NCBI GenBank assembly: GCA_023250585.1
Contig: JAHFAK010000001.1
Coordinates: forward strand, 232 to 64,231
Direction: 5' to 3'
Origin: Deltaproteobacteria bacterium
GTDB taxonomy: Bacteria; Bdellovibrionota_F; JAHFAK01
DNA length: 64,000 nt
In this document: piece after piece, positions 5,114 through 48,516 of the stretch
Layout: every line of letters starts with the position of its first letter
Numbering within the stretch: position 1 is the first letter of the stretch
Notes under the pieces: model-generated
Database searches by the model: none
What the model was told of the DNA's origin: nothing
Seen by the model: the letters and a program-made list of their open reading frames with translations, nothing else
Program-made: the position numbers and the translations under genes

Positions 5114-6859
5114 CTATATCGAAAAATCAATATACCCCTCTTCTTTCAGATAGTAAAGGATATGAGCAACAGCTTCATGAACATCTATAGTTGTTGTATC
5201 AAGAACAATTTCTGGTTGTTTTGGTATTTCAAAAGGATCACTTATTCCCGTAAAATCTTTCAGATCTCCAGAACGGGCACGTGCATAGAGCCCTTTACGA
5301 TCACGCTCTTCACAGATAGTAAGAGGCGTTGAAACGTACACTTCAATATAGGCTCCATAGTGAGAAATAAGTGCCCTATTTTCTTGTCTAATATGTTCAT
5401 GAGGGGCAATGGGAGCACAGAGCACAATACCACCGTTTTTAGTAATTTCACTTGCTACAAATCCAATCCGTCGAACATTGATTTCTCGATGCTCTTTGGA
5501 AAACCCAAGTTCATTAGACAGGTGTTTTCGAACAATATCCCCATCTAAGAGAGTTACATGTCTTCCGCCATTTTCCCGCAATTTTGCATAGAGTGCTTTT
5601 GCTATCGTTGATTTTCCTGAACCAGAAAGGCCCGTGAAAAAAAGAGTAAAACCCTGTTCTTTCTTGGGAACATAGACTTTTCGTAACTCTTCTATAACTT
5701 CAGGATAAGAAAACCATTCTGGTATCTCTTCTCCTCTTTTCAAAAGATTTCGAAATTCTGTTCCGGAAAGTGTAAGCATGGTAGAATTTTTGGGAACTGA
5801 ATTCTTCGGTACACAGCGGTCTAATTCTTTACAGTAAACCATCTCTTGGAAAGGTATAATCTTAATTCCAATTTCTTTCTCACATGTTTTAACGTATTCT
5901 TGGGCTTCATAAGGTTCGTAAAAGTGATCTCCATTTATTTTTTCCCCCGGTTCCGCATGATCACGCCCAACAATAAAATGAGTACACCCATAACTTTTAC
6001 GAATCAAAGCGTGCCATAGGGCTTCTCTTTTACCTGCCATACGTATTGCTAATGGAAGAACTCGTAATAATACTGTATCTTTTAAATATTTTTCTGATAT
6101 GATTCTATAACAACGAACACGAGTATGATAATCAATATCATCTGGTTTTGTTATTCCTACAACGGGATTGAGAAGGACATGTCCTTGTACTTCATCACAT
6201 GCACGGAGTATAACTTCAACATGAGCTCGATGGAAAGGATTACGTGTTTGGAATCCAATCACTCGATTCCATCCATATTTTTGTAATTCCTCTTTTACTT
6301 CTTGTGGAGTCTTTCGCAGATCTTGAATATCGTAATGTTTTGGAAGCTCAACACATTCTATTCTCCCACCGCAATAGTACTCTTGCGTCTGATTAAAAAG
6401 ATATGAAACTCCTGAATGCTCAAGGGACGTTGTTCCAAAAATACACTGAGCTTCTTTAAGTTTATCGGGTTTCCAAATATCCTCTATATGAAATACAGCA
6501 AGAGGAACTCCTTCTTCATCACAAAGGGCAACTTCACTCTTTGTTTTTAGAGAACGTACTGTATCAGATGATATATCAAAAACAATAGGTATAGGCCATA
6601 GAGCTCCGTTATCTAAACGAGCATTGGTCAAAACAGAATAATAATCCTTTTGAGAGAGATACCCTTCCAAGGGATTAAAACTTCCATTCATAAGCATCTC
6701 GAGATCACAGAGTTGCCTTGTATTTAAATGAATTTGTGGAAGTTTCTTCGCGTATGAGAGAAGTTCTTTTCTCGAAGTCATAGTATTTTTGAAAATTTGC
6801 GTTGGTTTTCTTTCAATGCTTTCGATCATTATTCCCCGAGTATTACGATAAATATCCAA
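5114..6859 (-). CDS. bifunctional sulfate adenylyltransferase (ATP sulfurylase) / adenylylsulfate kinase (PAPS synthesis)
   Basis: ATP-sulfurylase motifs FQTRNPFHRAHVE and GRDHAEPG. C-terminal APS-kinase P-loop FFTGLSGSGKSTIAKAL. N-terminal PUA-like region. Start may instead be the Met 10 codons downstream (MIESIERK). Confidence 0.9.
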   Translation of the reverse strand: MDIYRNTRGIMIESIERKPTQIFKNTMTSRKELLSYAKKLPQIHLNTRQLCDLEMLMNGSFNPLEGYLSQKDYYSVLTNARLDNGALWPIPIVFDISSDTVRSLKTKSEVALCDEEGVPLAVFHIEDIWKPDKLKEAQCIFGTTSLEHSGVSYLFNQTQEYYCGGRIECVELPKHYDIQDLRKTPQEVKEELQKYGWNRVIGFQTRNPFHRAHVEVILRACDEVQGHVLLNPVVGITKPDDIDYHTRVRCYRIISEKYLKDTVLLRVLPLAIRMAGKREALWHALIRKSYGCTHFIVGRDHAEPGEKINGDHFYEPYEAQEYVKTCEKEIGIKIIPFQEMVYCKELDRCVPKNSVPKNSTMLTLSGTEFRNLLKRGEEIPEWFSYPEVIEELRKVYVPKKEQGFTLFFTGLSGSGKSTIAKALYAKLRENGGRHVTLLDGDIVRKHLSNELGFSKEHREINVRRIGFVASEITKNGGIVLCAPIAPHEHIRQENRALISHYGAYIEVYVSTPLTICEERDRKGLYARARSGDLKDFTGISDPFEIPKQPEIVLDTTTIDVHEAVAHILYYLKEEGYIDFSI

Positions 6860-30274: not shown

Positions 30275-30288
30275 ATTTTCTCATGATG

Positions 30289-32062: not shown

Positions 32063-32764
32063 TTATTGTATATTCTTTGATCGAGGATAATTCAAGAAAC
32101 TCATGCTGAGCCACAGTATTGATGAAATTCCATAAAAAATAGTTACAACAAATGAAATAACTTTTAGATCCCACCCACAAACAATAGTGATTCCTAAAAA
32201 AAGAGGAAGTAAAGCTAACATAAACCGTACTGAAAGAAATGAATATTTGTTATAGTATAAATGAACAAATGTTCCTATAAAACCTTGAGAAGGCATTTCT
32301 TTTACTGCCAGTGGAACAAAAATGATGAGCACTCCGCTTGAAAAAGCTGCGAGTAGAATTAAGTAATAGCTCTCTGTATAAATCCCAAAAAGGACAATGA
32401 GCATCAACCGAGCAAGATTACAGCCCAAATCATCAAGAAGGTGCCCAAGCATACTACAACTGTTTGAAGCTTTAGCTATAGGACCATCAGCAAAATCAAC
32501 AAAGATAAGAAAATAAATGCAAAAGATTCCAATAATGGGAAGCAGAACTACTCCATTCATAGCTGTCACAAGAAAACAATATCCAATGAACACAAGAAAA
32601 ATTGCAGAAACATCAAGCACGTTGGCGGTTATCCCAATTTTGTAAGCAAAAAAAGCAAACTGCAGTGCAATCCATTTCACAAGATTAGTCGTAAAATCAA
32701 ATTGTTTTCTGTCAAAAACTGATCTTTCAGGAAACTGTTTAGCTGTAAATTGAGTAAATGTCAT
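32063..32764 (-). CDS. CDP-alcohol phosphatidyltransferase-family membrane enzyme
   Basis: DFADGPIAKASNSCSMLGHLLDDLGCNLAR contains the D-G-x2-A-R/K...G-x3-D-x3-D signature. 6 TM helices. Confidence 0.7.
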   Translation of the reverse strand: MTFTQFTAKQFPERSVFDRKQFDFTTNLVKWIALQFAFFAYKIGITANVLDVSAIFLVFIGYCFLVTAMNGVVLLPIIGIFCIYFLIFVDFADGPIAKASNSCSMLGHLLDDLGCNLARLMLIVLFGIYTESYYLILLAAFSSGVLIIFVPLAVKEMPSQGFIGTFVHLYYNKYSFLSVRFMLALLPLFLGITIVCGWDLKVISFVVTIFYGISSILWLSMSFLNYPRSKNIQ

Positions 32765-33993
32765 AATGTAGTTCCTTCCATGAGTTCAAGAAAACGATCT
32801 GCTGAAATTGACCATGAATAATGCTTTTCGGTAATCGAACGGATATCTTCTGCTCGCATAACATACCTTTCTCGATTTCGACAAAAATCCTCTATTTTAT
32901 TACCTATGCTTTGAGGATCACATCCATTAATAATCCACTCTTTGTTATAGCGCTTAAGAATTTCTGGAGTTGCCCCATTGTCAGTGCCAAGCACAACAAG
33001 TCCTGAGAGTAATGCTTCAACAGTTGCAAGACCAAATCCTTCAGCACCTTGCGTAGGAAGAATAAAAGCATCCGCAACTTGATAGTAATGAGCTAACTCT
33101 ATTTCAGAAATTCCACTGACAAGGCGGACAGAATCTTTTAGAGAAAGTGAGTCTATGTACTGACGAATTTTCGTTTCCATCACACCTCGTCCAACAATTA
33201 TTATAAAAAATGAAACTCCTTTTTTTTTGAGCCCTGCAAGGGCTTCGACAAGTTTATCAACTCCTGTCCGAGGTTTCAAACCACGTGCTGTTATAAAAAG
33301 AATCTGCTCTAACGGAAGATTAAGTTCCTTACGAAGTTTTATCTTTAATGCATTATTAGTAATCGGAGTATACAGTTTTTCATCTGCTCCACCTGGAACA
33401 ATTTTAATCTTATCTTTAACTCCATTTCGGCCAATTGAAATACAACGATCACGTGCATACTCACTGTGAACCAAAACAAGATCTGCTTTGCTAATAACTG
33501 AAATAGCAATGCGATCGAAAAAATGTCCAATAATCTGTACTACTGGATTTTTTGGATAATTATATAAAAGTTCCGAATAAACATCACTATGAAAATCATA
33601 TATAATTTTTGCACGAGGCCACCATCGTTTTGGATTAAAACCTATCATCCACCATGGATTATGAACCCACACAACATCTATATTTTCATACTGCGATGCC
33701 ATCTTCTTCTGAGCACTATAGGATTGTACTGCAGTAACAAGAGGCCATAACATATGAGTGAGATCGCCTCTTTTAGGAATAGAAACTCGGAAATAGTGCA
33801 TATTTTCGACTATTTCATATGAAGAATATTTATGACTGTATTTCCGGGTAAGTATAATAACTTCATGGTTTCGATATGCTAATTCTCGTGAAATATTGTA
33901 TACAAGCTTAGGTAAGCCGCTATGGCGATCAGGATAAATTCCGGGTGTAAGAACAAGTATCTTCATTCTAGTTATTTTTTTTATGCCCAACAA
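32761..33993 (-). CDS. GT4-family glycosyltransferase (GT-B, retaining)
   Basis: C-terminal PTQGAEGFGLATVEALLSGLVVLGTDNGATPEIL is the EX7E region of Glycos_transf_1. Confidence 0.85.
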   Translation of the reverse strand: MLGIKKITRMKILVLTPGIYPDRHSGLPKLVYNISRELAYRNHEVIILTRKYSHKYSSYEIVENMHYFRVSIPKRGDLTHMLWPLVTAVQSYSAQKKMASQYENIDVVWVHNPWWMIGFNPKRWWPRAKIIYDFHSDVYSELLYNYPKNPVVQIIGHFFDRIAISVISKADLVLVHSEYARDRCISIGRNGVKDKIKIVPGGADEKLYTPITNNALKIKLRKELNLPLEQILFITARGLKPRTGVDKLVEALAGLKKKGVSFFIIIVGRGVMETKIRQYIDSLSLKDSVRLVSGISEIELAHYYQVADAFILPTQGAEGFGLATVEALLSGLVVLGTDNGATPEILKRYNKEWIINGCDPQSIGNKIEDFCRNRERYVMRAEDIRSITEKHYSWSISADRFLELMEGTTL

Positions 33994-35665
33994 AACGGTA
34001 ACTCAATAAAAGTATGCTCACCCATAGTAATAAAATCAATGAGGAAACAGTGAACTTTGTCTCTACCAACCCACAACCGCCGATAGAATCAACGTTCGAG
34101 AATATTGAAAGTCTCTTTATAGAACAGTTGACTTTACAACTTCCTTTAGAACTATTGCCATTAGCCTCTCCATCATCACATTCTTCTTCTCCCGCTTCTA
34201 TAAAACCATCTCCACATATAGCTAACTTACAAGTATTCAAGCATGAATCAGTATTCTCTGCATTACCATCATCACATTCTTCTTCTCCCGCTTCTATAAA
34301 ACCATCTCCACATATAGCTAACTTACAAGTATTCAAGCATGAATCAGTATTCTCTGCATTACCATCATCACATTCTTCACCCACAGCGAGTTTTCCATCA
34401 CTACATCCAAGTTCTATAGCTCCAATATCACATCTGACGCTTTGATCCCCATCACCATCAATTGGCCTAATAAAACCACGCTGATCAAAAGAAGGACAAC
34501 TCACTGGATCTCCTTTATCAATTGCAGGACTTCCGGGCCGAATCACATGAGTATCGGTGGGCCCTCCATTGTTATCAAGCGAACCTAGTTTCACATCCAG
34601 TTCATAATTCGGATAATATCCATAGATATCAGTAGTATTTGAAGGTTTAGGAAGATCATAGGTATTAACACCATTTATCTTACATCCCATGGTTACTTTG
34701 ATGATGTTGTATCCCTCTGAAACAATTGGGCCTCGACAATCATGCGGCGGACTCCCCTGATCAGGACTTGCATCCTTATTCTCCGCTATAATCGTATTCT
34801 TTACTACTATAGTTAATACATCTGTTGGAAAATCACTTGTATAAATTCCCCACGTAAAATCACCTATGGCTATACCACCTGCATGACCACTATCATTTTT
34901 ATCGCTATCGGCAGTATTACTAGAAATTGTACTATTTACTATGGTTGTCTCAGCGTCTAAGGACATTGCCGCACCACTCTCGATTGTAGTATTTCCGCTA
35001 AACGTAGAACTTTCTACAATCATTATTCCCGAAGCATTCCATACTCCACCGCCATAGTCTGCTTTATTACCAGAAATAGTACTCCGATCTATATGTAATA
35101 TCCCATTATTCGTATTTAATATTCCTCCTCCTGTTCCTAGTCCCTCTGATATACCTGTTAAAGAATGAACTGCTACAGGAAAAGTTCCTGAAAGGGTACT
35201 ATTATTTTTGATAGTACAATAGAAAAGAGATAAATTTCCTTCATTGCGAACACCTGCTCCACCCTTATCAACATCCATTCCATTTTGGATTGTCACATCT
35301 CGAATTGTTACTGTTGCACCTGAAGCAACAAAGAAAATTCGTGGAGGAGTATTTCCTCCATCAATGAAAGTACTTCGTGTACCCGATCCCTGAAGTGTAA
35401 TATCTTTATTAATGGTGATCCCATTTTCAATATACGTCCCCTCAGCAATAATAACAACATCAGCATCCTGTGACGCTTCTATCGCTTCTTTAATTGAACA
35501 ATAGGGATTACCATGTATATCATTACAATGGGAATCATTTTTATTAACATTTCGTGTGATACCAGCCCACGTATGAGAAATAAACACTGGACTACTCATT
35601 AGAATTACCATAGCTGTAAGGGAAATATATTTTATTTGGTAGATCTTAATTTTTATACTCAACAT
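33968..35665 (-). CDS. secreted right-handed parallel beta-helix protein with three C-terminal cysteine-rich (Myxococcus-type CGDG...CDDGN) repeats and a C-terminal hydrophobic anchor
   Basis: Signal peptide MLSIKIKIYQIKYISLTAMVILMSSPVFISHTWAG. PbH1-like repeats (NNSTLSG, ISGNKADYGGGVWNASG, FSGNTTIESGAAM, ISSNTADSD). 3x CGDGFIEAGEEECDDGNAENTDSCLNTCKLAI. Ends ...LILLLWVSILLLSYRFVGHKKNN. Confidence 0.7.
   Translation of the reverse strand: MLSIKIKIYQIKYISLTAMVILMSSPVFISHTWAGITRNVNKNDSHCNDIHGNPYCSIKEAIEASQDADVVIIAEGTYIENGITINKDITLQGSGTRSTFIDGGNTPPRIFFVASGATVTIRDVTIQNGMDVDKGGAGVRNEGNLSLFYCTIKNNSTLSGTFPVAVHSLTGISEGLGTGGGILNTNNGILHIDRSTISGNKADYGGGVWNASGIMIVESSTFSGNTTIESGAAMSLDAETTIVNSTISSNTADSDKNDSGHAGGIAIGDFTWGIYTSDFPTDVLTIVVKNTIIAENKDASPDQGSPPHDCRGPIVSEGYNIIKVTMGCKINGVNTYDLPKPSNTTDIYGYYPNYELDVKLGSLDNNGGPTDTHVIRPGSPAIDKGDPVSCPSFDQRGFIRPIDGDGDQSVRCDIGAIELGCSDGKLAVGEECDDGNAENTDSCLNTCKLAICGDGFIEAGEEECDDGNAENTDSCLNTCKLAICGDGFIEAGEEECDDGEANGNSSKGSCKVNCSIKRLSIFSNVDSIGGCGLVETKFTVSSLILLLWVSILLLSYRFVGHKKNN
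34171..34400. repeat. tandem direct repeat, unit 96 bp: two perfect copies (34171-34266, 34267-34362) plus a diverged partial third copy; encodes the 32-aa cysteine-rich repeats of the beta-helix protein
   Basis: Identical 96-nt strings (catcatcacattcttcttctcccgcttctataaaaccatctccacatatagctaacttacaagtattcaagcatgaatcagtattctctgcattac) at 34171 and 34267. Confidence 0.9.
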
Positions 35666-35668: not shown

Positions 35669-36262
35669 TTATACAAGAAAAGAAATTTCTTGAGCTATTC
35701 TATGAGTATCACGTTGACCAATGATACGATTATAAACTAAAGATACTTTCTTGGCAGTTTTTGTCTCAAGATCATAACTAAGACAACCAACAATTGGTTT
35801 ATAATAAACATGAAGCGTACAGGCACGACGATTGTTAATTGCAGGATTCTCTAATTGATGAATCCCGATCTCATCATCAATATAAGAAACGTCTCCCCTA
35901 TTATACGTTTCTTGAAGTAATGGTGTAAGGTCGCCTTTAAAGTCAATGGATTTTACATAAACATAATTTTTACTCTCTATAGTCCCTCGTAGAACAGTCA
36001 TACAACAATGCTGCCCTTCATGATCATGAATTGGTGTTTTTTGCCCTGGTTCCCAACATAGAATAAGTATTTCAAAAAATTCATTTTTAAAAATAAGATT
36101 CCGGGTATAATGAGATTGATGAAAATAATATAAATTTTCCAAGGAACATTCAAAAAGTTTATATTGATGCATGAGTTCTAAAATTCTTTCATTTTCTATA
36201 GCTAAGGATGGAGAGAATAATCGAGAAATTTTCTGAATAAATTCTCTCAGTTGAGTTAGCAT
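35669..36262 (-). CDS. cysteine-dioxygenase-type-I-like cupin (thiol dioxygenase family)
   Basis: ILILCWEPGQKTPIHDHEGQHCCMTVLRG closely parallels mammalian CDO [29 protein letters not shown] (the 3-His iron site HxH...H). Confidence 0.7.
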   Translation of the reverse strand: MLTQLREFIQKISRLFSPSLAIENERILELMHQYKLFECSLENLYYFHQSHYTRNLIFKNEFFEILILCWEPGQKTPIHDHEGQHCCMTVLRGTIESKNYVYVKSIDFKGDLTPLLQETYNRGDVSYIDDEIGIHQLENPAINNRRACTLHVYYKPIVGCLSYDLETKTAKKVSLVYNRIIGQRDTHRIAQEISFLV

Positions 36263-36373: not shown

Positions 36374-38353
36374 TTAATACATTCGGGGAAGAGCATTAAT
36401 AGTTTTTAGCACTTCTTTATGATTAACACGTATCACATCGAGATATTCTAATATAGACTCTTTGCGAGGATAATTTTCTACTTCTATAAGCTTTAATGCA
36501 TCTGACCGATCGATGTGATGTTCACGTATTTGATTTGAACGAAAACAATCATTTTCGCTAAAACCGCATATCGTTCTATACACATAGTTATAGAAAGCAG
36601 CGGTTCCATCACCTATACGCCATGTAGTACTTGTATCTTTCGCTATCTCCCAATTATATTCATTAATTAAGATATCATTTATAATTTTTTCATTCCATGG
36701 AACATATTTATATAAATAAACATGGTCTTGCCGAATAAAATAATAACAAAGATAAGCCCAAAAAGTATCGATGATAGAATTATTAAGATACCGAGGATTA
36801 AGAAGATATTGCTTCATATAGTAATAGAGAATCTTAATCTTATTAAAGTTAGAAATAGTTATATGTCGTCTACCTTGAGACAGATCTTTGACATATCCAA
36901 TATTATTAATTCCTGAAAAACCTGCTTTAAAGCCTACATGCTCTAAGAAATTTTGACAAAAGATTAAGAGCTGTATTCCCGTATCTTTTTTTATCTTGTT
37001 CGCATAATAGAAAAATTGTTTATCTCCTGCCATCAATAATGGGATCATTCCAAGAACTGGCTGATGAATCCAGGCATTAATATTTTTTCTGATATTATCC
37101 CTCTTTTTTTTGATATCGGCTGAAACAAGAATATGCTCAATACCAAGTTTTCCACAGACTCTAGCTTGATTTCGTCTGCCAATATCGGTAATTATCCCCC
37201 AATCATATGAATAGGCAATGGGATTCATACCAAATTCTTTTTTAATAAGATGCAGACCATAACTGCTGTCGCGTCCACCGCTAAAGGCAACAATGCAATC
37301 TGGATTACCGTTATTTTGGCGATGCTCATCTAAAATTTGAAGGAACTTGTCCTTTCCCTGTAATTTGATATTTTTGTAAGAATGACAGTAATTACAAACT
37401 CCTTTCTCATCAAAGCTAATGAAAGGCATAGTTTCTGTAAGTATACAGATGGAACAACGCTTTAAATGGTAATTTTGAGGATAAAGCCATAGATTTTCAT
37501 TATCATTGAACTCCGTATTTTCTACTGCATTTTTAAAAGCATTCCCATTCTTTTGAGAAAATATGCGAGATTGACATTTATTAGAGTTATCTAACAAAAA
37601 ATTCTCTCTATGAAGAGTATCAAGGTTCATGATAATTGCCTGATGAGCACCTACATGAAAAATTTCTAATTTATTTTCAAAAGATTTTAATATCCCACAA
37701 GACTTAATTCGTTTTAGCATTGAGTATTCAGATGCAAAAATGAAGATTTCTTGGTTTGAATCAGCCATATAATAGAGAGATCCATTATTCGTAGCTAGAA
37801 TTAAATTTTTGTTTATACTATCTATCAAAGCAGTAGAAACAGTGCCTTCTATTTCACTATACGTTAAACTAAGTGATTGCGCATAAGAATGATTTCTACA
37901 TAAATGAGAAAAAATTTTCAGAAAGATTTCTGTATCTATGGTGTGTTTTTTTTCTAAAAACGAGTATTTATCCCATAGCATATCATCATTGACAATAATT
38001 CCATTATGAATACAGTAAAAAGAATGTTCTTCAAGGGGTTGATTATTATCTTGATGGATACTGCTCCCATCCGTAACTAATCGTGTATGGCCAATAACGC
38101 AGCTTGGGTGTATATTATCTGTCTTTTTACTGCCTATATTAAATAATTCTTTAAACTCTCGACTCTTAATAAACACAGAGGCCTTTTCTCTAGATTTTTT
38201 AATTGTTACTTTATTATCTTTAAAGATTGCAATTCCGGCAGCATCTTTCCCGCGAGACTGAGAGTATTGAAACAACTTTTGAGTGGTTTCTTGGAAACTA
38301 TCACAAGGAATAATATCTGCTTCTCTTAGTGCTATACCAAATATACCACACAT
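36374..38353 (-). CDS. fusion: class-II (Ntn) glutamine amidotransferase domain + zinc-ribbon/PP-loop N-acetyl-sugar amidotransferase domain (WbuX/WbpG/PseA-like)
   Basis: N-terminal MCGIFGIA (Cys2 nucleophile), GHTRLVTDG, HNGIIVND as in AsnB/PurF. Mid-protein CSICILTETMPFISFDEKGVCNYC zinc ribbon followed by PP-loop IVAFSGGRDSS, as in TIGR03573-type amidotransferases. Confidence 0.75.
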   Translation of the reverse strand: MCGIFGIALREADIIPCDSFQETTQKLFQYSQSRGKDAAGIAIFKDNKVTIKKSREKASVFIKSREFKELFNIGSKKTDNIHPSCVIGHTRLVTDGSSIHQDNNQPLEEHSFYCIHNGIIVNDDMLWDKYSFLEKKHTIDTEIFLKIFSHLCRNHSYAQSLSLTYSEIEGTVSTALIDSINKNLILATNNGSLYYMADSNQEIFIFASEYSMLKRIKSCGILKSFENKLEIFHVGAHQAIIMNLDTLHRENFLLDNSNKCQSRIFSQKNGNAFKNAVENTEFNDNENLWLYPQNYHLKRCSICILTETMPFISFDEKGVCNYCHSYKNIKLQGKDKFLQILDEHRQNNGNPDCIVAFSGGRDSSYGLHLIKKEFGMNPIAYSYDWGIITDIGRRNQARVCGKLGIEHILVSADIKKKRDNIRKNINAWIHQPVLGMIPLLMAGDKQFFYYANKIKKDTGIQLLIFCQNFLEHVGFKAGFSGINNIGYVKDLSQGRRHITISNFNKIKILYYYMKQYLLNPRYLNNSIIDTFWAYLCYYFIRQDHVYLYKYVPWNEKIINDILINEYNWEIAKDTSTTWRIGDGTAAFYNYVYRTICGFSENDCFRSNQIREHHIDRSDALKLIEVENYPRKESILEYLDVIRVNHKEVLKTINALPRMY

Positions 38354-38373: not shown

Positions 38374-39564
38374 CTATTTCCCATGAAAGTAGGTGACTTT
38401 TTTTCTCTTACCATCCCAATGAATATCGGGAATGAGAACCTCTTTCTTTGCTTCTATACGATCTCGATATTTAATAAGATCCTGTAACATGATATGAATC
38501 TCTGCTTCCATATCTTTTGTTGGTTGATAGCCTAGTTCTAGTAGCTTTTTATGATCGGGTTTATAGTAATGTTCTTCCGCTTCATACCGTGGATTTTCAA
38601 CATTCTTAACTTCTACTTTTAATCCCAGATCTCTTCCTACACTTTTTACTTTTAAGGCCAATTGTGTAATATCATATACTTCTTCAAACTGATTGAAGAC
38701 TCGATATTCTCCTTGTGCAGGAGGATTTTCAATAACAAGCGTTAAACACTGGATTGAATCTTTCAGAGGCAAGAAACCCCGTTTTTGATGACCCTTTCCA
38801 AATGGAGAAAGTGGTTGATCAACTACAGCTTGGCAACAGAAACGATTGATAGCTGTTCCAAAACACTGGTCAAAATCAAGTCTCGTCAGCAAACGATCAT
38901 CTTCGTTCATTTCAAGAATACGCGAACCATATACTATTCCTTGCATAATATCAGAAGAACGAAGTCCCCAAATACGACAGGCAAGCATGACATTATTGCT
39001 ATCATGTACTTTACTTTGATGGTACCAACTACCCGCTTGCCGAGGAAAAGGAAGATTTTCTTTTCGACCACGATATTCAATCTCAAAAAACCCTTCAGGA
39101 ATATCTATGTTTGGTGTGCCGTACTCCCCCATAGTTCCCAGCTTTATAAGATGACCTTGTGGTGTTATATTCTTCATAGCATAGAGGACATTAAGAGTAC
39201 CTACAATATTGTTTGTCTGCGTCCACGCAGCATGTTTAGCATCAATCATACTGTAAGGAGCAGATGGATTTTCGCCTAAATGGACAATGGCTTCAGGTTT
39301 GAAATCTCTGAATATCTGTTCCACAAAATCGTAATGAATAAGATCCCCCTTAGAAAAAAAGAGTTCCTTTTTAAAGTGATCCTCAAAAGCTTTCAGACGT
39401 TCTGGCATTTCGTGAATAGGGAGAGCAGAATGGGAATCCATTTCACTCACACATTCTCGACGTGAAAAATTATCTATTCCTCCTATGGTATAACCTTTCG
39501 AAGCAAGACGTAGTGCAAGAGACCAACCTAAATATCCATCAATACCTAAAATAAGAACTCTCAT
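38374..39564 (-). CDS. sqdB: UDP-sulfoquinovose synthase
   Basis: Collinear with plant SQD1 and cyanobacterial SqdB: MRVLILGIDGYLGWSLALRL (SQD1 VMVIGGDGYCGWATALHL), GENPSAPYSMID, KLGTMGEYGTPNIDIPEG, YHQSKVHDS, FGTAINRFCCQAVVDQPL, RVFNQF, NPRYEAEEHYY. Confidence 0.9.
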   Translation of the reverse strand: MRVLILGIDGYLGWSLALRLASKGYTIGGIDNFSRRECVSEMDSHSALPIHEMPERLKAFEDHFKKELFFSKGDLIHYDFVEQIFRDFKPEAIVHLGENPSAPYSMIDAKHAAWTQTNNIVGTLNVLYAMKNITPQGHLIKLGTMGEYGTPNIDIPEGFFEIEYRGRKENLPFPRQAGSWYHQSKVHDSNNVMLACRIWGLRSSDIMQGIVYGSRILEMNEDDRLLTRLDFDQCFGTAINRFCCQAVVDQPLSPFGKGHQKRGFLPLKDSIQCLTLVIENPPAQGEYRVFNQFEEVYDITQLALKVKSVGRDLGLKVEVKNVENPRYEAEEHYYKPDHKKLLELGYQPTKDMEAEIHIMLQDLIKYRDRIEAKKEVLIPDIHWDGKRKKVTYFHGK

Positions 39565-39576: not shown

Positions 39577-40899
39577 TCACAATTGAACTTGATTACCTTT
39601 GGTTTTAAGAAAATGAGCTTGAAAATATCTCCATACATATGTCATCCCTGCCCCAGCATACAAAGCTAAAAATGGCTCCAAAGGAAGCCGTGCTCGCATA
39701 CTCGATCTTATCAATGTAAATATAAAAACGAGTGAGATACAATAACCCCATATGACTAAATGGCTCCTAAACATTTTTCGTGCTCTTATAAGCCCAACAA
39801 GAGCTAACAACAAAATAGGTCCATAGGTCACTATACTCATTACTTTAAAAGGTGATGCCGTAAAAGAACTTTCTGAAATAGTTTCTTCCGGATAAAACCT
39901 CCACAAATTTAGAAATCGTTCAAGACAAAGGACAAGGAATTGTAGAGGATGAGATCTAATAAAATCTGTTGACTTAGCAGTAAAAATTCTATTTTTTGCC
40001 AAATCATTTTCATCTTTTAGTTCTTCTTCTATTCTAGGTAAAATATTGTTAGTAAACTGTAGAAAGTTTTCCTTTCTATTAAATCCAGATGAAAATTCAT
40101 TATTATGCATATATAAAACTTTTCCTACATTGCTTTTTGTAGTCAAAAACTCCCCAAGAACAAAATAATTACGTATACCCCAGAGACATACCGTTGAATA
40201 AAAAATAAGCATAAATAGCACTGTTTTTGTTACCCTCTTTATTAATGACTCGTGTCTTAAGATATACATTACGATGAAGAAAGCAAGAATGATAAAAGGG
40301 CTTAAGATTGAAATTGTAAAATTGGCCAATCCAAAAAGTAATGCGGATAACCAAAGAAAAGACGGTTTCGTACATGCCAGTGAGAAGCTCAAAATTCCTA
40401 ACACCACAAGAAGAGTAAAAAATGTTTCTGGAAGAATAAGAACAGATGAAAAAATAAGAATAGGATAACAAGCAACAATAAACATAGCACATAGAGCACT
40501 CGTTTTTCCAAAAATATGGCGCGTTAGAAAATATACGCAAGGCATCATACTTGAATTAAGGCATGCTAGGATAATGCGTGTCCATAGAATATCTCCATCT
40601 CCTAAATGAAAATAAATTGAAAGTACATAGGGAAAAAATGGCATGATATTAGTTTTACTCCCCCACCCTTTACCTTCAAATAATCGAAGGGCTGCTGGGT
40701 AATAATCGTTTATTTCATCAGGCCATATAAAACGATCACCTGTAACAAAAACAGCAACAATTATACGAAGGGCACCTCCGATGAAACATATAAAAAGTGG
40801 AATAATCACACTATTTGAGTTATTTCCACCAACTCTTGATAATAGTTTTTCCAAAGTTAAATCCATAATTCCAATCAGTGCCTTTTTTTGTAATACCAT
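39577..40899 (-). CDS. GT-C fold membrane glycosyltransferase (ArnT/PMT-like, GT83/GT39-type)
   Basis: About 11 TM helices. First periplasmic-loop motif FIWPDEINDYYPAALRL (the DE motif of GT-C enzymes). Follows a membrane GT2. Start may be further downstream; 80-nt overlap with the upstream gene as drawn. Confidence 0.55.
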   Translation of the reverse strand: MVLQKKALIGIMDLTLEKLLSRVGGNNSNSVIIPLFICFIGGALRIIVAVFVTGDRFIWPDEINDYYPAALRLFEGKGWGSKTNIMPFFPYVLSIYFHLGDGDILWTRIILACLNSSMMPCVYFLTRHIFGKTSALCAMFIVACYPILIFSSVLILPETFFTLLVVLGILSFSLACTKPSFLWLSALLFGLANFTISILSPFIILAFFIVMYILRHESLIKRVTKTVLFMLIFYSTVCLWGIRNYFVLGEFLTTKSNVGKVLYMHNNEFSSGFNRKENFLQFTNNILPRIEEELKDENDLAKNRIFTAKSTDFIRSHPLQFLVLCLERFLNLWRFYPEETISESSFTASPFKVMSIVTYGPILLLALVGLIRARKMFRSHLVIWGYCISLVFIFTLIRSSMRARLPLEPFLALYAGAGMTYVWRYFQAHFLKTKGNQVQL

Positions 40900-41863
40900 A
40901 TTTTCTTGTATGAATTATTATAGAAACCTCTCCTATACGAAGGCCTTTTTTAGCAGACTCAAGTATTACCTCTGCAGATTGGAATTGATCTTCTTTTAGT
41001 TGAAGACACTTAAGAGCATTAACATTAAAAGCCTTGAGGCCGCTCGAACAATCAGTCAATCGTACATTGGCAAGAAAGTTAATAATTCTTGTAAAAAATC
41101 GAATCCCTATCTTTCTTAATGTACTCCCTCTATAAGCTCCCATCATTCGGGATCCAATCACGAGATCCTTTTCTCCGTTTATAATTGGAGCTACTAATTT
41201 TTCAATTTCAAGAGGAGAATGTTGAAGATCTGCATCCATGGTGACTCCAATAGGAATATTATAGTTAACTAAAACATCGTACCCTAGTCTCGATGCAGCT
41301 CCTTGTCCACGATTAATCTTATTTTTGACAACGACAGCTCCACTCTCACAACTCACTCCCGCAGTGTTATCAGTACTTCCATCATCAATGACAAGAATTC
41401 CTACTGATCTTCTTTGAATCGTGCGAGGTATCTTACTAAGGAGTTCTTGTAAGTTTGCTTCTTCATTGAATGCAGGAATGATAATGACAATTTCCTTATT
41501 AAAAAGTTCCTTGTCCAAAACATTCTTAGCTTCTTCATATCCCAAACGACGAAGGAGAAGATCAATTTGATGTCTCATATCATCAAACAATGATTTTGTA
41601 TAGAAGAAAAAAATCCATATGACAAAATTTGAAGCTATAAGCAAAGCTAATATTCGTCCTCTCTGATGCATTGCCAATTGCAACATTTCTGCAATTGCAT
41701 TGAGAATATTTGGGTTAGAACTTACTAAAAGGAGTGACACACTGAAACACGCGGAAAAAACAAAATTCATCCTTCTCCATTTAGGTCCTCTATAGAAAAT
41801 AAAACTTAAGACAAGACCTATTAGACCTAAACTAAAACCAAATATACGTAGACTTGAAAACAT
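40820..41863 (-). CDS. membrane-anchored GT2 glycosyltransferase (polyprenyl-phosphate sugar synthase, ArnC/DPM1/GtrB-like)
   Basis: Three N-terminal TM helices, then IVIIIPAFNEEANLQELLSKI and GILVIDDGSTDNT GT2 motifs. Confidence 0.75.
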   Translation of the reverse strand: MFSSLRIFGFSLGLIGLVLSFIFYRGPKWRRMNFVFSACFSVSLLLVSSNPNILNAIAEMLQLAMHQRGRILALLIASNFVIWIFFFYTKSLFDDMRHQIDLLLRRLGYEEAKNVLDKELFNKEIVIIIPAFNEEANLQELLSKIPRTIQRRSVGILVIDDGSTDNTAGVSCESGAVVVKNKINRGQGAASRLGYDVLVNYNIPIGVTMDADLQHSPLEIEKLVAPIINGEKDLVIGSRMMGAYRGSTLRKIGIRFFTRIINFLANVRLTDCSSGLKAFNVNALKCLQLKEDQFQSAEVILESAKKGLRIGEVSIIIHTRKYGITKKGTDWNYGFNFGKTIIKSWWK

Positions 41864-41869: not shown

Positions 41870-42823
41870 TTATTGAGAAGTATAACTTTCTTTGAAATAG
41901 TCGAACGTTTTTTGTAGACCCTCTCGTAAATTAGTTCTTATACTAAATCCTAAATCTTTTTTAGCTTTTGTACTATCTGCATAATTTCTTACGACTTCCC
42001 ACTCTGATCTTTGCATATGAGCTATTTCTACTCGATATTTACCTTCTCTTTCAATAACCTGCTTGATGAGAATAACCAGATCTTTTATACTTGTTTCTCG
42101 ATTGGTACCAATATGAAAAATTTCTCCACATCCTTTCTTTTGAATTGCACAAAGAATAGCTTCACAAAGGTCATCAACAAATATAAAATCTCTTGTTTGT
42201 GAACCATCTCCGTAAATAATAATAGATTTTTTCTCAAGAACGTTTTTCATACATTTTGCCACGACACTATTTTTATGTAGGGAAAAGGGTCCATAGACAT
42301 TGCTAAATCGAAGAATAGTTGAAGGAATTCCAAAGCTTTTTGTGTAAGCTCGAGTATATCCCTCACACGAAAGCTTCCCCGCCCCATAAGGAGAAGTAGG
42401 TTTTGCTGCAAGCTCTTCATTATAGGGAGGATTAACCTCTCCCAAAGCAGCACCAGATGAGGCAAGAATAAAACTTGAGACTCGCGCCTCACGGGCCGCT
42501 TCAAGCATATTAAGAGTACCTCGAACATTTATTTCAAAATCTACTCGTGGATTATTAAGTGAAGGAGCAATTCCCGTCGAAGCAGCAAGATGAATAACAA
42601 CATTACAATCTGAACAAGCATTTTGACAACTCTTATAATCTAAAATATCTGCCTCGCGTACTTCTATAGATGGATCTATTTTCATTATTGTTTCTCGACG
42701 TCCGATACTAAGATTATCCAGGATACAAAGAGTAAGATTAGGTATTCTTTGACGAAGCATTATAATAAGATTTGTTCCAATAAATCCACACCCGCCAGTA
42801 ATAAGCCATCTTTGAGTTGTCAT
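41870..42823 (-). CDS. NAD-dependent nucleotide-sugar epimerase/dehydratase (extended SDR; UDP-GlcA decarboxylase or 4-epimerase type)
   Basis: WLITGGCGFIGTNLI, catalytic YGAGKLSCE (YxxxK). 317 aa. Confidence 0.85.
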   Translation of the reverse strand: MTTQRWLITGGCGFIGTNLIIMLRQRIPNLTLCILDNLSIGRRETIMKIDPSIEVREADILDYKSCQNACSDCNVVIHLAASTGIAPSLNNPRVDFEINVRGTLNMLEAAREARVSSFILASSGAALGEVNPPYNEELAAKPTSPYGAGKLSCEGYTRAYTKSFGIPSTILRFSNVYGPFSLHKNSVVAKCMKNVLEKKSIIIYGDGSQTRDFIFVDDLCEAILCAIQKKGCGEIFHIGTNRETSIKDLVILIKQVIEREGKYRVEIAHMQRSEWEVVRNYADSTKAKKDLGFSIRTNLREGLQKTFDYFKESYTSQ

Positions 42824-42877: not shown

Positions 42878-44266
42878 CTAAATTTTAATTTGAACTAGAT
42901 CATATTCCTGATATTGAATAGAGTTAAGTTTTATGATCAATCCAGTAATTATAAAAGTACTTGGGGTGAGATAGAAGGTTCTTACAATGCCGGTCATGAC
43001 GAGCGCTAGGTAAATTCCTGTTAGAAACAACGGCAGATGATCAATGGTATCTTTTGGCTGACGAAAATAGGTTCGGAGCCCATACCCTATAGTAAAAATA
43101 ACAATTAAAATTTGAGTTAAGAAACCCCAGATTCCAGTATCACCAAGAAAGATAATAAAATTCGAGTGGGACCCATATTTAACCGGATACCGCTTATAGA
43201 CAAAATCATCAAAATTTTCCGAGCCTCTCCCAAAACCAAGATTGTCAAAACCATGTATCATCGCAAGTTTCATATGACTCGAAAAAAATTCAATCTGAAT
43301 AGATCTCATACTTTCAATAAATGGATTTACTCTTTTAATAAGATGGATTGGCGTCTTAATTGTTGTTGTCTCGCTTAATTTAATTTCTGATCTGTCAAAA
43401 AAAGATGAAGTATTGCTCACATAGAGGCCTATTATAATAAACAATACAATAAATGAAGTTTTATAAAAATTAAATACCAAAGGAAAAAACCGACGATCTT
43501 TCGAACGGTAGAAAATATAAATGAATGATAAGAACGCTCCAAGGCCGAGATATGAACTACGTGAAACCGAAAGCACTATCGTCACAAAGAATAGAGAAGT
43601 TATAAACATAAATTTTAGTGTTTTATATTTATATATACCATATATTGATAAACTGAAAGGAATAATCAACCATGGGCCAAAACCATCTCCAATGAACCCT
43701 GTCATATAGGCAAAGCCAGGGATAGAGAAAGCACCTGTTCCATATCCAAATGCTTTCATCCCAGATTGTCCCCGGAAGAGTTCTTTCAATGGAGGAAAAA
43801 TCATTTCATTAAAAAAATAATATCCAATAAGCTGAGTTAATCCCATAACACAATTGAAAATCCCTCCTAGAATAAAAAACTTAATTGCTTTTTCTACATG
43901 CTGTCTCGTCTTTAGAAAAAAAATCACGTAGAAAAAGCAAAGCATATTTTCGAGGAAATACCCTCCTGCACCACGTAAAGCATCTATAGGACTATCAGCA
44001 ACCACAGCTCCGAACATACAAATAAGAAAGAAAATAAAATAAAGAGCCCCTATTATACTAATCTGGGGTACTTGTTGACGAACACAAGCAATCAGAATTA
44101 CAATGGGTAAAGCAAGGATGACAAGAAGATTAATTGGTGTTAGTCCTACATTCCCAAGTTCAACGGCATAGACACCAAATCCAGAAAGAAAGATTATAAG
44201 ATAAATAAAGCTAGCTCCAGGATTTATTCGTACTATCGGTAATTTAAAGCTTGCTACTTTTTCCAT
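42878..44266 (-). CDS. O-antigen polymerase/ligase-like polytopic membrane protein (Wzy/WaaL superfamily)
   Basis: 462 aa, at least 10 TM helices, with a larger loop near the C-terminal third. Context in an O-antigen locus. No strong motif. Confidence 0.45.
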   Translation of the reverse strand: MEKVASFKLPIVRINPGASFIYLIIFLSGFGVYAVELGNVGLTPINLLVILALPIVILIACVRQQVPQISIIGALYFIFFLICMFGAVVADSPIDALRGAGGYFLENMLCFFYVIFFLKTRQHVEKAIKFFILGGIFNCVMGLTQLIGYYFFNEMIFPPLKELFRGQSGMKAFGYGTGAFSIPGFAYMTGFIGDGFGPWLIIPFSLSIYGIYKYKTLKFMFITSLFFVTIVLSVSRSSYLGLGAFLSFIYIFYRSKDRRFFPLVFNFYKTSFIVLFIIIGLYVSNTSSFFDRSEIKLSETTTIKTPIHLIKRVNPFIESMRSIQIEFFSSHMKLAMIHGFDNLGFGRGSENFDDFVYKRYPVKYGSHSNFIIFLGDTGIWGFLTQILIVIFTIGYGLRTYFRQPKDTIDHLPLFLTGIYLALVMTGIVRTFYLTPSTFIITGLIIKLNSIQYQEYDLVQIKI

Positions 44267-45168
44267 TGCAACCCCATTTTTCCCCGTAATCCATCAAAGA
44301 ATCCTAACCAACAGGTCCATCCATAATGAGGATATCCCTGAAAGGTTCTTATAACAAATTTCATTGGTAATTCTAACAACCCCATGTAAAAAACAGAAAA
44401 GATATAGTTCATTGTTGTTCCATATTTTCGCGCTAGGTAGAGTCTATTTCTTTGAATTAAGTATCCTTGAAACGTATTAAATTGTTGTGGAAGAGATTTG
44501 TGCCGTACACGACACCTGAGATCAACATAGGCTTTTAACCCTGCTGTACGTATTTGAAAACCAAGATCAATCTCTTCCCCATACATAAATAATTTTTCAT
44601 CTAACCGAATTCCCTTTTGCAAAGCTTTTTGAGAAAAAAGAATCAATGCTCCTTGCACATAATCTACCTCTAATACTTCATTGTCAGGCATATTATACGG
44701 AAGAGTTCTTTCCCAATGACCGCGAGCTTTTAAAAATGAAAATCCTTTCCCCCCTATAGTTCGTATTTCTTTTGTTTGATAATTCTCTTCTATAACTCCA
44801 ACCATTCCACAATTGGGCATCTTTTCGGCTGTTTCAACGAGGTGTTGAAGCATATCAGGGCCACAGATAAGATCATGATTACTAATTAAAACATAATTAA
44901 ATCCTTCACGAAGTCCACGATCAAAAGCCCAATTATTACCACCTGTATAACCATGATTTTGATTAAGGACAACAACTTCAAGATCAGGAAAGGTATTTTT
45001 GATAGTTTCTCCAACAGGATTTGGAGATGCATTATCAACAACTTGAAGATAAAAATTCTGATAACTCTGATTTCGAAAGCACTTTACTGCCTCGAGAGTG
45101 TCTTCAACGTTGTTATATGTTAGTATTGATACAAGAACTTTAGGGTCTGTTTTATATTCTCTTTTCAT
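44254..45168 (-). CDS. GT2-family glycosyltransferase (rhamnosyltransferase-like)
   Basis: LVSILTYNNVEDTLEAVKCF, VVDNASPN, and a later DLRCRVRH region typical of soluble GT2 O-antigen transferases. Confidence 0.8.
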   Translation of the reverse strand: MKREYKTDPKVLVSILTYNNVEDTLEAVKCFRNQSYQNFYLQVVDNASPNPVGETIKNTFPDLEVVVLNQNHGYTGGNNWAFDRGLREGFNYVLISNHDLICGPDMLQHLVETAEKMPNCGMVGVIEENYQTKEIRTIGGKGFSFLKARGHWERTLPYNMPDNEVLEVDYVQGALILFSQKALQKGIRLDEKLFMYGEEIDLGFQIRTAGLKAYVDLRCRVRHKSLPQQFNTFQGYLIQRNRLYLARKYGTTMNYIFSVFYMGLLELPMKFVIRTFQGYPHYGWTCWLGFFDGLRGKMGLQWKK

Positions 45169-47163: not shown

Positions 47164-48516
47164 TTAATGAGATACAGGCGATTTTCTGAAATGAAATACT
47201 TTGAAATAGTGAATTAGTTTATTCCATCCAAAAGTCCATAAAAACTTAAAGTCCTCCCTTTTTGGGATAAGAAATTCCTTGTATAATCCTGAACTAATTT
47301 TTTTATAAATTATAACAGTGATAACAGATGTTACAAGAAATGAAATTGATACTGCTAGTGCTCCTCCAATAATTCTGAAAGGAGGAATTAACATGAAGCA
47401 GAGTACTATTTGTAAAATGAGAGGAACTATTTGTATGTACATTGGAATCTCTGGTCTACCAATACCAAGAAAATATTGCCGTAAAAGACTTGAAGGACCA
47501 AAAAGAATAAGACCCGGCAAAATTATAAAAAAGGCATCAACACTTGGAAGGAAAGCACGTCCATATAAAATCAAAGTAGCGGGATATATTATCAACGCTA
47601 AAAAGATTCCAGCAATAATAAATGTAATAAAAGATAGTCTAAATACACGTTCCGTTATTTTCCGTGAATCGCAATTCATACCATTTAAGTTTGATACGTG
47701 AGGAAAAAGAATGGTACCAATTGCATTGCTAATGCGATTGAGATATTCCGCTTTTCCTTTTGCCATTGCAAAAAATCCTAATGCCGCAGGAACGAGTAAA
47801 ATAGCCGTCACCATGTTCGAAAAATAAATAGTCAAAAAACCAATCGCTTCAGAAAGGTAGATTTTCATACTATATCTCAGTAATTCTGGAAGGCGAGCAC
47901 AAGACGTTTTCCAACGCCAAGGAATTTTTCTATGTACAACACTTATTCCATAAATCAACGCAATCAAATTGGATACATGAAAAGCAATGGCAACTGACCA
48001 CAGATTCATATTAAAGACTACAAGAAGAACAATATTGACAATACCCTTACAAGAATCGTGGATAAGCATTAACCGATTATACGACTTTACATCTTCCTGT
48101 GAGAGAAAAATATACATATAATTTCTCAAAAGAAAACGAAAAGGTATATAAGCAAAAACAAAACTTATGAAAAATGATGATAAGGTAGTCTTGAAAAAAA
48201 ATTCTGAAAGTATCTCTTGACCCATAGAGAGTAATAAAAAAATGCCGACCCCAAGACCAAAACCAACGTAATTAATAAGACTCAAAAGCTCTGCTGGATC
48301 TATTGTTTTTTTACCTAAAAAATGTACTGCAGCAATCTCTAAACGTGGTCCGCCAAAAACTCGACAGTAATTGATGACAAGCTCAAACATTGCCCATAAC
48401 CCAAAACCAGAAGGTCCTAGCTTACGCGCAACAATTGCTCCAGTTACAATATGGATACCTGTAAAGAGAAGTTCGCGATTAAAGAGACTAAATGATTTAT
48501 CTGCAAGTGATGACAT
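47164..48516 (-). CDS. second Wzx-like polysaccharide flippase (MOP/PST family)
   Basis: 450 aa, about 12 TM helices. N-terminal LFTGIHIVTGAIVARKLGPSGFGLWAMF resembles Polysacc_synt family openings. Confidence 0.6.
   Translation of the reverse strand: MSSLADKSFSLFNRELLFTGIHIVTGAIVARKLGPSGFGLWAMFELVINYCRVFGGPRLEIAAVHFLGKKTIDPAELLSLINYVGFGLGVGIFLLLSMGQEILSEFFFKTTLSSFFISFVFAYIPFRFLLRNYMYIFLSQEDVKSYNRLMLIHDSCKGIVNIVLLVVFNMNLWSVAIAFHVSNLIALIYGISVVHRKIPWRWKTSCARLPELLRYSMKIYLSEAIGFLTIYFSNMVTAILLVPAALGFFAMAKGKAEYLNRISNAIGTILFPHVSNLNGMNCDSRKITERVFRLSFITFIIAGIFLALIIYPATLILYGRAFLPSVDAFFIILPGLILFGPSSLLRQYFLGIGRPEIPMYIQIVPLILQIVLCFMLIPPFRIIGGALAVSISFLVTSVITVIIYKKISSGLYKEFLIPKREDFKFLWTFGWNKLIHYFKVFHFRKSPVSH

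Follow-up and report, generated by a model that had tools for sequence, protein, structure and literature searches.

The UDP-sulfoquinovose synthases SQD1 of Arabidopsis and SqdB of cyanobacteria, Rhodobacter and Sinorhizobium serve the synthesis of the sulfolipid sulfoquinovosyl diacylglycerol (SQDG). According to reviews of 2026, sulfoquinovose occurs in SQDG, in sulfolipids of a few bacteria and in archaeal N-glycans; its producers are phototrophs and some archaea, and heterotrophic bacteria degrade it (PMC12890257, PMC13436972). The sole documented case of sulfoquinovose in a glycan and not in a lipid is that of Agl3 from Sulfolobus acidocaldarius, where the sugar is part of protein N-glycans (PMC4388408, PMC12890257). 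In the literature searched, which was an incomplete selection, sulfoquinovose was not described from any surface glycan of bacteria; the one paper there that names both UDP-sulfoquinovose and undecaprenyl deals with the pyruvylation of a cell-wall polymer. The Agl3 sugar joins a dolichol-pyrophosphate-linked oligosaccharide, which is then transferred by an oligosaccharyltransferase. Here we analyzed the sqdB gene (38374..39564, minus strand) in a 64-kb stretch of DNA from a Deltaproteobacteria bacterium (contig JAHFAK010000001.1), hereafter called the window. The genes conserved beside it suggest that in many non-photosynthetic bacteria sulfoquinovose is placed on surface glycans via a lipid carrier, not in the classic photosynthetic sulfolipid.

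A second group of described systems is related to this locus by its glycosyltransferases. GtrABC, which glucosylates O-antigen, ArnC/ArnT, which acts on lipid A, mycobacterial PpgS/Rv3779, and CsbB/YfhO and GacI/GacL, which act on Gram-positive wall polymers, likewise have a glycosyltransferase of family 2 (GT2) and one of the GT-C fold encoded beside a nucleotide-sugar synthesis gene. Gtr/Arn-type systems attach their sugar outside the membrane, as a side-chain decoration and not as a backbone residue. Compared to these, the predicted cargo in the window is a sulfonated sugar, which is undescribed for such systems. Compared to the SQD1/SqdB systems, no recognisable SqdX, SqdD or SqdC is encoded next to the window sqdB, whose partners are instead an epimerase, a polyprenyl-phosphate-type GT2 and a GT-C protein in a polysaccharide locus; and compared to the Agl3 route, a mono-sugar polyprenyl-phosphate path with a small PMT_2-type GT-C enzyme is predicted. 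The synthase and lipid-carrier glycosylation are both of known kinds; what is new is that they occur together, along with the DUF2304-GT2, the epimerase conserved beside SqdB and the active site described below.

The sqdB open reading frame (ORF) runs from ATG to stop and encodes 396 aa. Its product matched the NCBIfam equivalog model NF041015 'UDP-sulfoquinovose synthase' with 579.1 bits over model positions 1-383 of 384, a marginal pass of the cutoff of 575. The original prediction, which was made from the letters of the DNA, had described the protein as collinear with SQD1 along its full length, and this was borne out: residues 2-384 aligned in one collinear stretch with the Arabidopsis SQD1 crystal chains 1qrr, 1i24 and 1i2b (E=3.7e-119), with 45% identity over 382 columns. 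Pfam detected only generic Epimerase and GDP_Man_Dehyd domains, but assignment as a generic epimerase or dehydratase was rejected, as the models of GalE and of the dTDP-glucose dehydratase RmlB scored 27.5 and 44.1 bits versus 579 for NF041015. This comparison of hidden Markov models agrees with the earlier claim of an SQD1/SqdB-family enzyme that is not an ordinary UDP-glucose epimerase. All six proposed hallmark blocks are present, namely GIDGYLGW at residue 7, GENPSAPYSMID at 97, GTMGEYGTPNIDI at 143, SKVHDS at 184, FGTAINRFCCQA at 235 and NPRYEAEEHYY at 324; however, GENPSAPYSMID is not common to SQD1, which reads GEQRSAPYSMID. The gene thus very probably encodes an SQD1/SqdB/Agl3-family UDP-sulfoquinovose synthase, predicted from its sequence to convert UDP-glucose and sulfite to UDP-6-deoxy-6-sulfo-glucose.

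The alignment used to compare active sites comprised the window SqdB, 119 homologues from databases, 72 SqdB ORFs of GTDB genomes, SQD1 and a single divergent relative; the roles of catalytic residues in SQD1 and Agl3 were taken from the literature (PMC4388408, PMC8987622). Beyond the full-length architecture of the SQD1/SqdB family, the window protein keeps the triad of the short-chain dehydrogenases/reductases (SDRs) as T144, Y181 and K185 (Thr145, Tyr182 and Lys186 of SQD1), His182 (His183 of SQD1), Met145, Glu147, Tyr148 and His95, all of which are invariant or nearly so among the 192 relatives. The active-site Thr, Tyr and Lys and the His183 equivalent named in the original prediction are therefore all in place. 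The equivalent of Arg101, in contrast, is Pro100 in the window protein, within 'GENPSAP' compared to 'GEQRSAP' of SQD1 and of the archaeal Agl3. Proline occupies this position in 190 of the 192 relatives compared; arginine is kept in SQD1 and in a protein of another genome, L082, that is discussed below. We therefore exclude that Pro100 reflects decay of this particular gene or marks it as dead, since nearly all compared sequences carry it too and the other catalytic positions are intact. The block GENPSAPYSMID, proposed as an SQD1 hallmark, is instead the distinguishing deviation of these sequences. By this alignment, the window SqdB belongs to a large bacterial clade, here termed the Pro clade, which is set apart from the studied enzymes by the exchange of Arg101 for Pro. 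Part of the clade carries the YHWTK variant of an active-site motif, as does Agl3.

The sqdB gene is embedded in a string of genes on the minus strand (Table 1), transcribed in the order Wzx, sulfatase-fold protein, GT2, Wzy-like protein, GalE-type SDR, DUF2304-GT2, GT-C, SqdB, amidotransferase, cysteine dioxygenase (CDO), DUF4215 protein and family 4 glycosyltransferase (GT4). Spacing is operon-like: the ORFs of the DUF2304-GT2 and the GT-C protein overlap, the GT-C stop lies 12 nt before the SqdB start, 20 nt separate the SqdB stop from the amidotransferase gene, and 3 nt separate the CDO and DUF4215 genes. Co-transcription of sqdB with the genes of the epimerase, the DUF2304-GT2 and the GT-C protein is the best explanation of this packing. 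A scan for promoters and terminators gave no signal above shuffled controls. The original prediction had placed sqdB between an ArnC/ArnT-like pair and a GT4 gene in a Wzx/Wzy locus. A GT2 of the ArnC/GtrB/DPM1 class and a GT-C/PMT_2 protein are indeed encoded immediately upstream, but the GT4 gene does not adjoin, as the genes of the 659-aa amidotransferase, CDO and the DUF4215 protein intervene. Consistent with the earlier statement, no recognisable sulfolipid synthase is encoded next to sqdB, the GT4 three genes away having only generic matches (NCBIfam matches weak, at most 70 bits). Overall, the earlier picture of the neighbourhood was right on the ArnC/ArnT-like pair in a Wzx-type locus and missed the CDO gene and the exchange of Arg for Pro.

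The GT2 upstream of the GT-C gene resembles the enzymes that load sugars onto lipid carriers. Its top NCBIfam matches were AglJ (94.5 bits, cutoff 325), PpgS (85 bits, cutoff 370), a haloarchaeal Dol-P-hexose transferase and ArnC (46 bits, cutoff 529), with every cutoff missed, and its closest PDB structures were Pyrococcus DPMS (5mlz, 3.6e-13), ArnC and GtrB; a DAD motif is present ('TMDADLQH'). AglJ, PpgS, the Dol-P-hexose transferase, ArnC, DPMS and GtrB all move a nucleotide-linked sugar onto polyprenyl phosphate. The membrane anchor of the window GT2 is N-terminal, a DUF2304 domain of roughly three hydrophobic helices (22.5 bits, E=1.4e-4, under the cutoff of 25.5 bits), whereas GtrB and DPMS have C-terminal helices. 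The resemblance is at class level, and from the gene context we propose the DUF2304-GT2 as a putative polyprenyl-phosphate-sulfoquinovose synthase.

For the GT-C protein, a start at 40866, which gives 429 aa, is likely. An AlphaFold (AF2) model built from 16 homologues reached a pLDDT of 83.4 and a pTM of 0.85, and all significant PDB matches of this model in Foldseek were GT-C enzymes (AglB, STT3, ArnT, PglB, ALG9/12, Pmt4, DPY19), with a probability of 1.00 for AglB, STT3, ArnT, PglB, ALG9 and Pmt4. The first extracytoplasmic loop carries an acidic 'WPDE' in the window protein, corresponding to a conserved FPD/PDE motif (consensus FPD) in the alignment. The protein is not an ArnT orthologue, as the ArnT model gave no match, Agl23 matched weakly with 21.7 bits and the TM-score to ArnT was 0.40; the label 'ArnT-like' given earlier thus holds for the fold and not for orthology. 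The SDR encoded upstream of the DUF2304-GT2 had its best PDB matches in Thermotoga maritima GalE (7.7e-45), the Bacillus cereus UDP-GlcA 4-epimerase 6zl6 and WbpP. It contains the Ser/YxxxK residues and lacks the Asp-Glu pair of dehydratases.

To compare gene contents across lineages, one genome per GTDB species was scanned, which yielded 80 loci encoding SqdB proteins 64-71% identical to that of the window. All are metagenome-assembled genomes (MAGs), and the set does not include the genome of the window. Neighbours were counted by tblastn and by unbiased clustering of all neighbouring ORFs. The loci belong to Desulfobacterota, Chloroflexota, Acidobacteriota, Actinomycetota, Planctomycetota, Spirochaetia, Nitrospirota, Omnitrophota, Dadabacteria and others, almost all of them non-phototrophic lineages. 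The window epimerase had an orthologue, scoring at least 200 bits with 39-46% identity, in 32 of the 80 loci; in 22 of these the orthologue lay within 100 bp of SqdB. When SDRs no more than 700 bp from SqdB were considered, 22 of 23 were closest to the window epimerase and not to any of the five other SDRs of the window. GT2 homologues occurred in 22 loci, in 20 cases within 3 kb of SqdB and in 12 with the DUF2304 fusion retained; frequently the GT2 directly adjoins SqdB (L041, L042, L060, L074 and L078). Clusters of Wzx, Wzy, initiating-transferase, GT4, DegT or NeuB/NeuC genes were detected in 34 of the 58 loci with a total flank of at least 8 kb.

When the 80 loci were searched by tblastn and phmmer with the GT-C, CDO, amidotransferase, DUF4215 protein and GT4 of the window, none of these proteins had a homologue there. 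GT-C genes of these loci were identified by Pfam scans of neighbours with multiple transmembrane (TM) segments. In L060 the SqdB-GT2 pair is flanked by two PMT_2 genes, and in L015 and L012 a PMT_2 gene lies immediately upstream of the GT2 gene. An ORF comparable in size and location is present in L018, which was outside the Pfam scan. YfhO and a weak PMT_2 match were found in L075, and three PTPS_related paralogues in L054.

A separate homology search retrieved the sole good homologue of the window GT-C, P0123 (44% identity), from L082, an independent genome with a GC content of 43%. It is encoded in a string comprising a DUF2304-GT2, an SqdB-like protein, an SDR::GT2 fusion, a radical SAM enzyme, the GT-C protein and a GtrA-family flippase (PF04138); identity to the window proteins is 34% for the DUF2304-GT2, 37% for the SqdB-like protein and 41% for the SDR. 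The SqdB-like protein belongs to another clade, retains the Arg, scores 343 bits with NF041015 and is 44% identical to SQD1. The presence of the same cassette with an exchanged type of SqdB is as expected if the cassette needs the SqdB product. At the level of gene context, this strengthens the original proposal that sulfoquinovose is built into a surface glycoconjugate.

Some related loci differ from the window in their gene complement. In L082 (2587-5449) the SDR::GT2 fusion comprises 583 aa, and the radical SAM/SPASM-type enzyme is encoded between the fusion and the GT-C protein; a B12-radical-SAM-like gene also precedes the gene of a GT2 relative in L090, which suggests further modification of the sugar. 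L090 was the only close relative, on a short contig, obtained in a metagenome search from the GT2; this search returned mostly generic DPM1-like matches via TMDADLQH and was uninformative on specificity. In the Actinomycetota MAGs L074 (824-4036) and L078 (511-3746), the genes of a DUF2304-GT2, of SqdB and of an EamA-family transporter form a compact string; the transporter could move a sulfur compound or the sugar conjugate. In the cyanobacterial (Stigonema) MAGs L049 (1699-6757) and L064 (3814-6195), a Pro-clade SqdB is flanked by HpnI-like glycosyltransferases (291.6 bits, cutoff 310). HpnI represents the family of the glucosamine transferase of bacteriohopanetetrol. The Stigonema glycosyltransferase was therefore rejected as an SqdX candidate, and these loci hint that sulfoquinovose may be joined there to a hopanoid or to some other lipid that is not SQDG.

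From the gene context, we propose that sulfoquinovose or its 4-epimer reaches a surface glycan by a Gtr/Arn-style lipid-carrier route, to which we assign a probability of about 0.6. SqdB would join UDP-glucose and sulfite to form UDP-sulfoquinovose, and the GalE-type epimerase would either convert this product at C4 or provide UDP-glucose from UDP-galactose. The membrane-anchored DUF2304-GT2 would then load the sugar onto polyprenyl (undecaprenyl) phosphate, the lipid-linked sugar would be flipped across the membrane, for which the GtrA protein of L082 is a candidate, and the GT-C enzyme would take the sugar off its lipid carrier and attach it, as a side-chain decoration, to a surface glycan or glycoconjugate that has already been exported. 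The family assignments, the conserved active-site residues, the operon-like packing and the recurrence of the gene set across phyla are observations; which donors the GT2 and GT-C enzymes use, which lipid serves as carrier, what accepts the sugar and what the epimerase does are inferred. The original prediction had favoured lipopolysaccharide (LPS) O-antigen or a glycoconjugate as destination. The recurrence of epimerase, GT2 and GT-C beside SqdB is in line with a surface glycoconjugate, whereas no LPS-specific gene was seen that would point to O-antigen in particular.

Several observations weigh against this route. The Arg that is essential in Agl3, judged from the inactive R101A mutant (PMC4388408), is Pro throughout the clade of the window SqdB. 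The window is a dense glycan super-locus, in which adjacency is weak evidence on its own. Very few homologues of the window GT-C are detectable, and none by sequence in the 80 GTDB loci. The closest GT2 relative, L090, has no SqdB on its 4.6-kb contig. A GtrA-type flippase, present in L082, was not found in the window by tblastn with the L082 protein (best E=1.9). The adjacency of CDO and SqdB is limited to this lineage, L001 and L084 representing the same organism; relatives of the CDO elsewhere are few, none of them is near SqdB, and their contexts are taurine-type or unrelated. Moreover, the cargo of the GT2 and GT-C enzymes could be another sugar, such as a product of the epimerase alone. 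We know of no characterised member of the Pro clade.

It is improbable that the UDP-sulfoquinovose is destined for SQDG or a different sulfoquinovosyl lipid, with the GT4 close by or an SqdX/SqdD encoded elsewhere as the synthase and with the position in a glycan locus being incidental. Among bacterial uses of SqdB only SQDG synthesis is established, and our view of this genome is confined to 64 kb. SqdX and SQD2 are members of the GT4 family, a GT4 is encoded three genes downstream of SqdB in the window, and generic GT4s occur in 15 related loci; yet other SqdB loci lack an orthologue of the window GT4, whose family matches are weak and generic, and the GT4s of the related loci, when scanned, gave generic matches only. 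Furthermore, the epimerase, polyprenyl-phosphate-type GT2 and GT-C that accompany SqdB across phyla play no part in SQDG synthesis, and many carriers are anaerobic non-phototrophs whose loci are rich in Wzx, Wzy, initiating-transferase and NeuB genes. It is equally improbable that a cytoplasmic Leloir glycosyltransferase, either the GT4 (32761-33993) or the GT2 at 44254-45168, adds sulfoquinovose to a repeat unit while the DUF2304-GT2 and the GT-C carry another sugar. The locus does contain several soluble glycosyltransferases and Wzx/Wzy-type machinery, and in Sulfolobus sulfoquinovose is an N-glycan residue. That N-glycan is built on a lipid carrier before transfer to protein, so that a cytoplasmic transferase would add the sulfoquinovose. 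However, the GT2 is the commonest companion of SqdB after the epimerase and frequently adjoins it directly, and the GT-C orthologue is found again in an SqdB-like string in L082, which favours the lipid-carrier route.

For the Pro clade, we consider it still less probable that the enzyme stops at UDP-glucose-5,6-ene or adds another nucleophile, such that its product is not sulfoquinovose. This would fit the presence of Pro for Arg101 in 190 of 192 clade members, given that R101A abolishes Agl3 activity (PMC4388408), the margin of only 4 bits above the NF041015 cutoff, the NCBI name of most clade members (just 'NAD-dependent epimerase/dehydratase') and the proximity of a CDO that produces cysteine sulfinate. 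Opposed to it are the invariance of every other catalytic position tested, the full-length collinearity with SQD1, and the sulfite-generating reductases of adenosine 5'-phosphosulfate or 3'-phosphoadenosine 5'-phosphosulfate (APS/PAPS reductases) encoded beside clade members in 9 loci of five or more phyla. In these 9 of the 80 loci the reductase, which passed the NCBIfam cutoffs, is located at a median distance of 73 bp from SqdB; they derive from Bipolaricaulota, Chloroflexaceae, Actinomycetota, Terriglobia and Saccharibacteria. This genomic association supports sulfite as the probable co-substrate of Pro-clade SqdB.

The 64-kb window does not encode an APS/PAPS reductase. It does encode an Arg-type, eukaryote-like CDO two genes from SqdB, which matched mammalian CDO1 with E=1e-20 compared to 1e-7 for bacterial CDO and 3-mercaptopropionate dioxygenase (MDO). 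Cupin fold, three-His iron site (His86, His88 and His140), Arg60, the Cys93-Tyr157 pair and His155 are common to both proteins, as indicated by alignment of the YTRNL, IHDH, GIHQLEN, HC and LHVY segments with human and rat CDO1. The window protein differs from CDO1 in having Thr for Ser153 and in being encoded in a bacterial glycan operon. Cysteine sulfinate can be transaminated to beta-sulfinylpyruvate, which releases sulfite spontaneously. By this step, the most speculative of the scheme, the CDO might supply sulfite to SqdB via cysteine sulfinate, a role that the chemistry makes plausible, though less likely than not; the CDO is also a candidate source of a sulfinate or taurine-type substituent. 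In the locus of its closest relative (36% identity; L086, 2789-4731) the CDO is paired with a decarboxylase (Pyridoxal_deC) dependent on pyridoxal phosphate. Read as a cysteine-sulfinate decarboxylase, the latter would complete what looks like a bacterial hypotaurine/taurine pathway. The L086 contig, which also encodes a GldH lipoprotein, may originate from Bacteroidota.

Most of the annotated genes of the window are glycan-related, and nearly all genes are on the minus strand. A search for tRNA genes found none, and Shine-Dalgarno usage gave no information on the lineage. A second Wzx, a Bac_transf initiating enzyme and RmlA-like and DegT enzymes are encoded elsewhere in it, so that the earlier description of the surroundings as a Wzx-type polysaccharide locus proved correct, with the Wzy_C match remaining below cutoff. 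WaaL, Wzz or LPS-specific genes were not identified in the window, and therefore O-antigen is indistinguishable from capsule or another polymer.

Table 1. Coordinates of sqdB and other features of the window.
Feature	Coordinates	Strand	Evidence or remark
ATP sulfurylase::APS kinase fusion (Sat::CysC, PAPS synthesis)	5114..6859	minus	ATP-sulfurylase 273 bits, APS_kinase 195 bits
GT4 glycosyltransferase	32761..33993	minus	Glycos_transf_1 98.7 bits
Secreted-type Cys-rich repeat protein (DUF4215 / choice-of-anchor Q / NosD-like)	33968..35665	minus	same gene string
Cysteine dioxygenase (CDO), Arg-type, eukaryote-like	35669..36262	minus	CDO_I 83.5 bits, cutoff 23; two genes from SqdB
Glutamine amidotransferase (class II) fused to WbuX-type PP-loop 'N-acetyl sugar amidotransferase' domain	36374..38353	minus	659 aa; GATase_7, GATase_6
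SqdB, putative UDP-sulfoquinovose synthase of the 'GE-x-P-SAPYS' (Pro) clade	38374..39564	minus	NF041015, SQD1 PDB chains, active-site residues
GT-C-fold glycosyltransferase (PMT_2 family)	39577..40899	minus	PMT_2 34.0 bits, cutoff 26.1
DUF2304::GT2 fusion, polyprenyl-phosphate glycosyltransferase class (DPM1/GtrB/ArnC/PpgS/AglJ-like)	40820..41863	minus	Glycos_transf_2 74.3 bits
GalE-type NAD-dependent nucleotide-sugar 4-epimerase	41870..42823	minus	Epimerase 183 bits
Possible Wzy-type polymerase or ligase (weak)	42878..44266	minus	Wzy_C 27.9 bits, below cutoff 31.7; 8 predicted TM segments
GT2	44254..45168		between sulfatase-fold protein and Wzy-like gene
Membrane sulfatase-fold protein, 643 aa	45205-47136	minus	Sulfatase match from residue 217; LtaS/EptA-like architecture
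Wzx-type flippase	47164..48516	minus	Polysacc_synt_3 68.4 bits, Polysacc_synt 57.8 bits
Sulfotransferase	59591-60511	minus	
Pyruvate-kinase-barrel::PUA_2::ATP-sulfurylase fusion, 730 aa	60531-62723	minus	directly upstream of sulfotransferase

The amidotransferase between SqdB and CDO is unusual in fusing a class II (Ntn, N-terminal Cys) amidotransferase to a WbuX-type domain, for which TIGR03573 (WbuX) scored 131 bits, below the cutoff of 203. Where such systems have been described, ammonia is donated by a separate HisH/HisF-like pair. The DUF4215 gene differs from that at 5891-7492 of the metagenome contig L001 by an indel of 96 bp (32 aa), apparently a variation in repeat copy number; this is the sole sizeable difference between the two contigs, which are otherwise 99.98% identical. 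The sulfatase-fold membrane protein, in which the region ahead of the Sulfatase match carries no annotation, is probably a phospho-substituent transferase and not a sulfatase. Two sulfate-activation modules and a sulfotransferase in the same window make it likely that the glycans of this locus are decorated with sulfate esters in addition to the sulfonate sugar.

The cassette at 22166-33993 encodes, besides the GT4, a CDP-alcohol phosphatidyltransferase-like protein, a GAPDH-like protein, DUF6206, a 3-dehydroquinate-synthase-like protein, an SDR, two B12-binding radical SAM enzymes, a PhyH::Rieske fusion, an FkbM methyltransferase and a nucleotidyltransferase, and has the look of a biosynthetic pathway whose product is a cyclitol or a heavily modified sugar-phosphate substituent. 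At 8743-10562 a split transketolase (N-terminal and pyrimidine/C-terminal subunits) is encoded beside a DegT aminotransferase and a methyltransferase; in such surroundings a split transketolase is typical of the biosynthesis of two-carbon-branched sugars.

Taken more broadly, the data raise the possibility that in many non-phototrophic, largely anaerobic phyla the SqdB clade, together with the epimerase, the DUF2304-GT2 and the GT-C enzyme, puts sulfoquinovose or 6-sulfo-6-deoxygalactose on surface polymers, with sulfite being provided by CDO in the window organism; in this full form we advance the proposal tentatively and at somewhat less than even odds. The comparison defines a conserved gene set of SqdB, epimerase, DUF2304-GT2 and GT-C, and the exchange of Arg101 for Pro separates a large SqdB clade from the enzymes studied to date. 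If the proposal is true, many bacteria of sediment, soil and groundwater would make sulfoquinovose for their own envelopes, and Gtr/Arn-type lipid-carrier glycosylation would gain a new cargo. Heterotrophic bacteria would then constitute a second biological source of sulfoquinovose, which would change the source and sink assumptions of the organosulfur cycle, and a permanently anionic sugar with a C-S bond would be added to the constituents of bacterial surface glycans.

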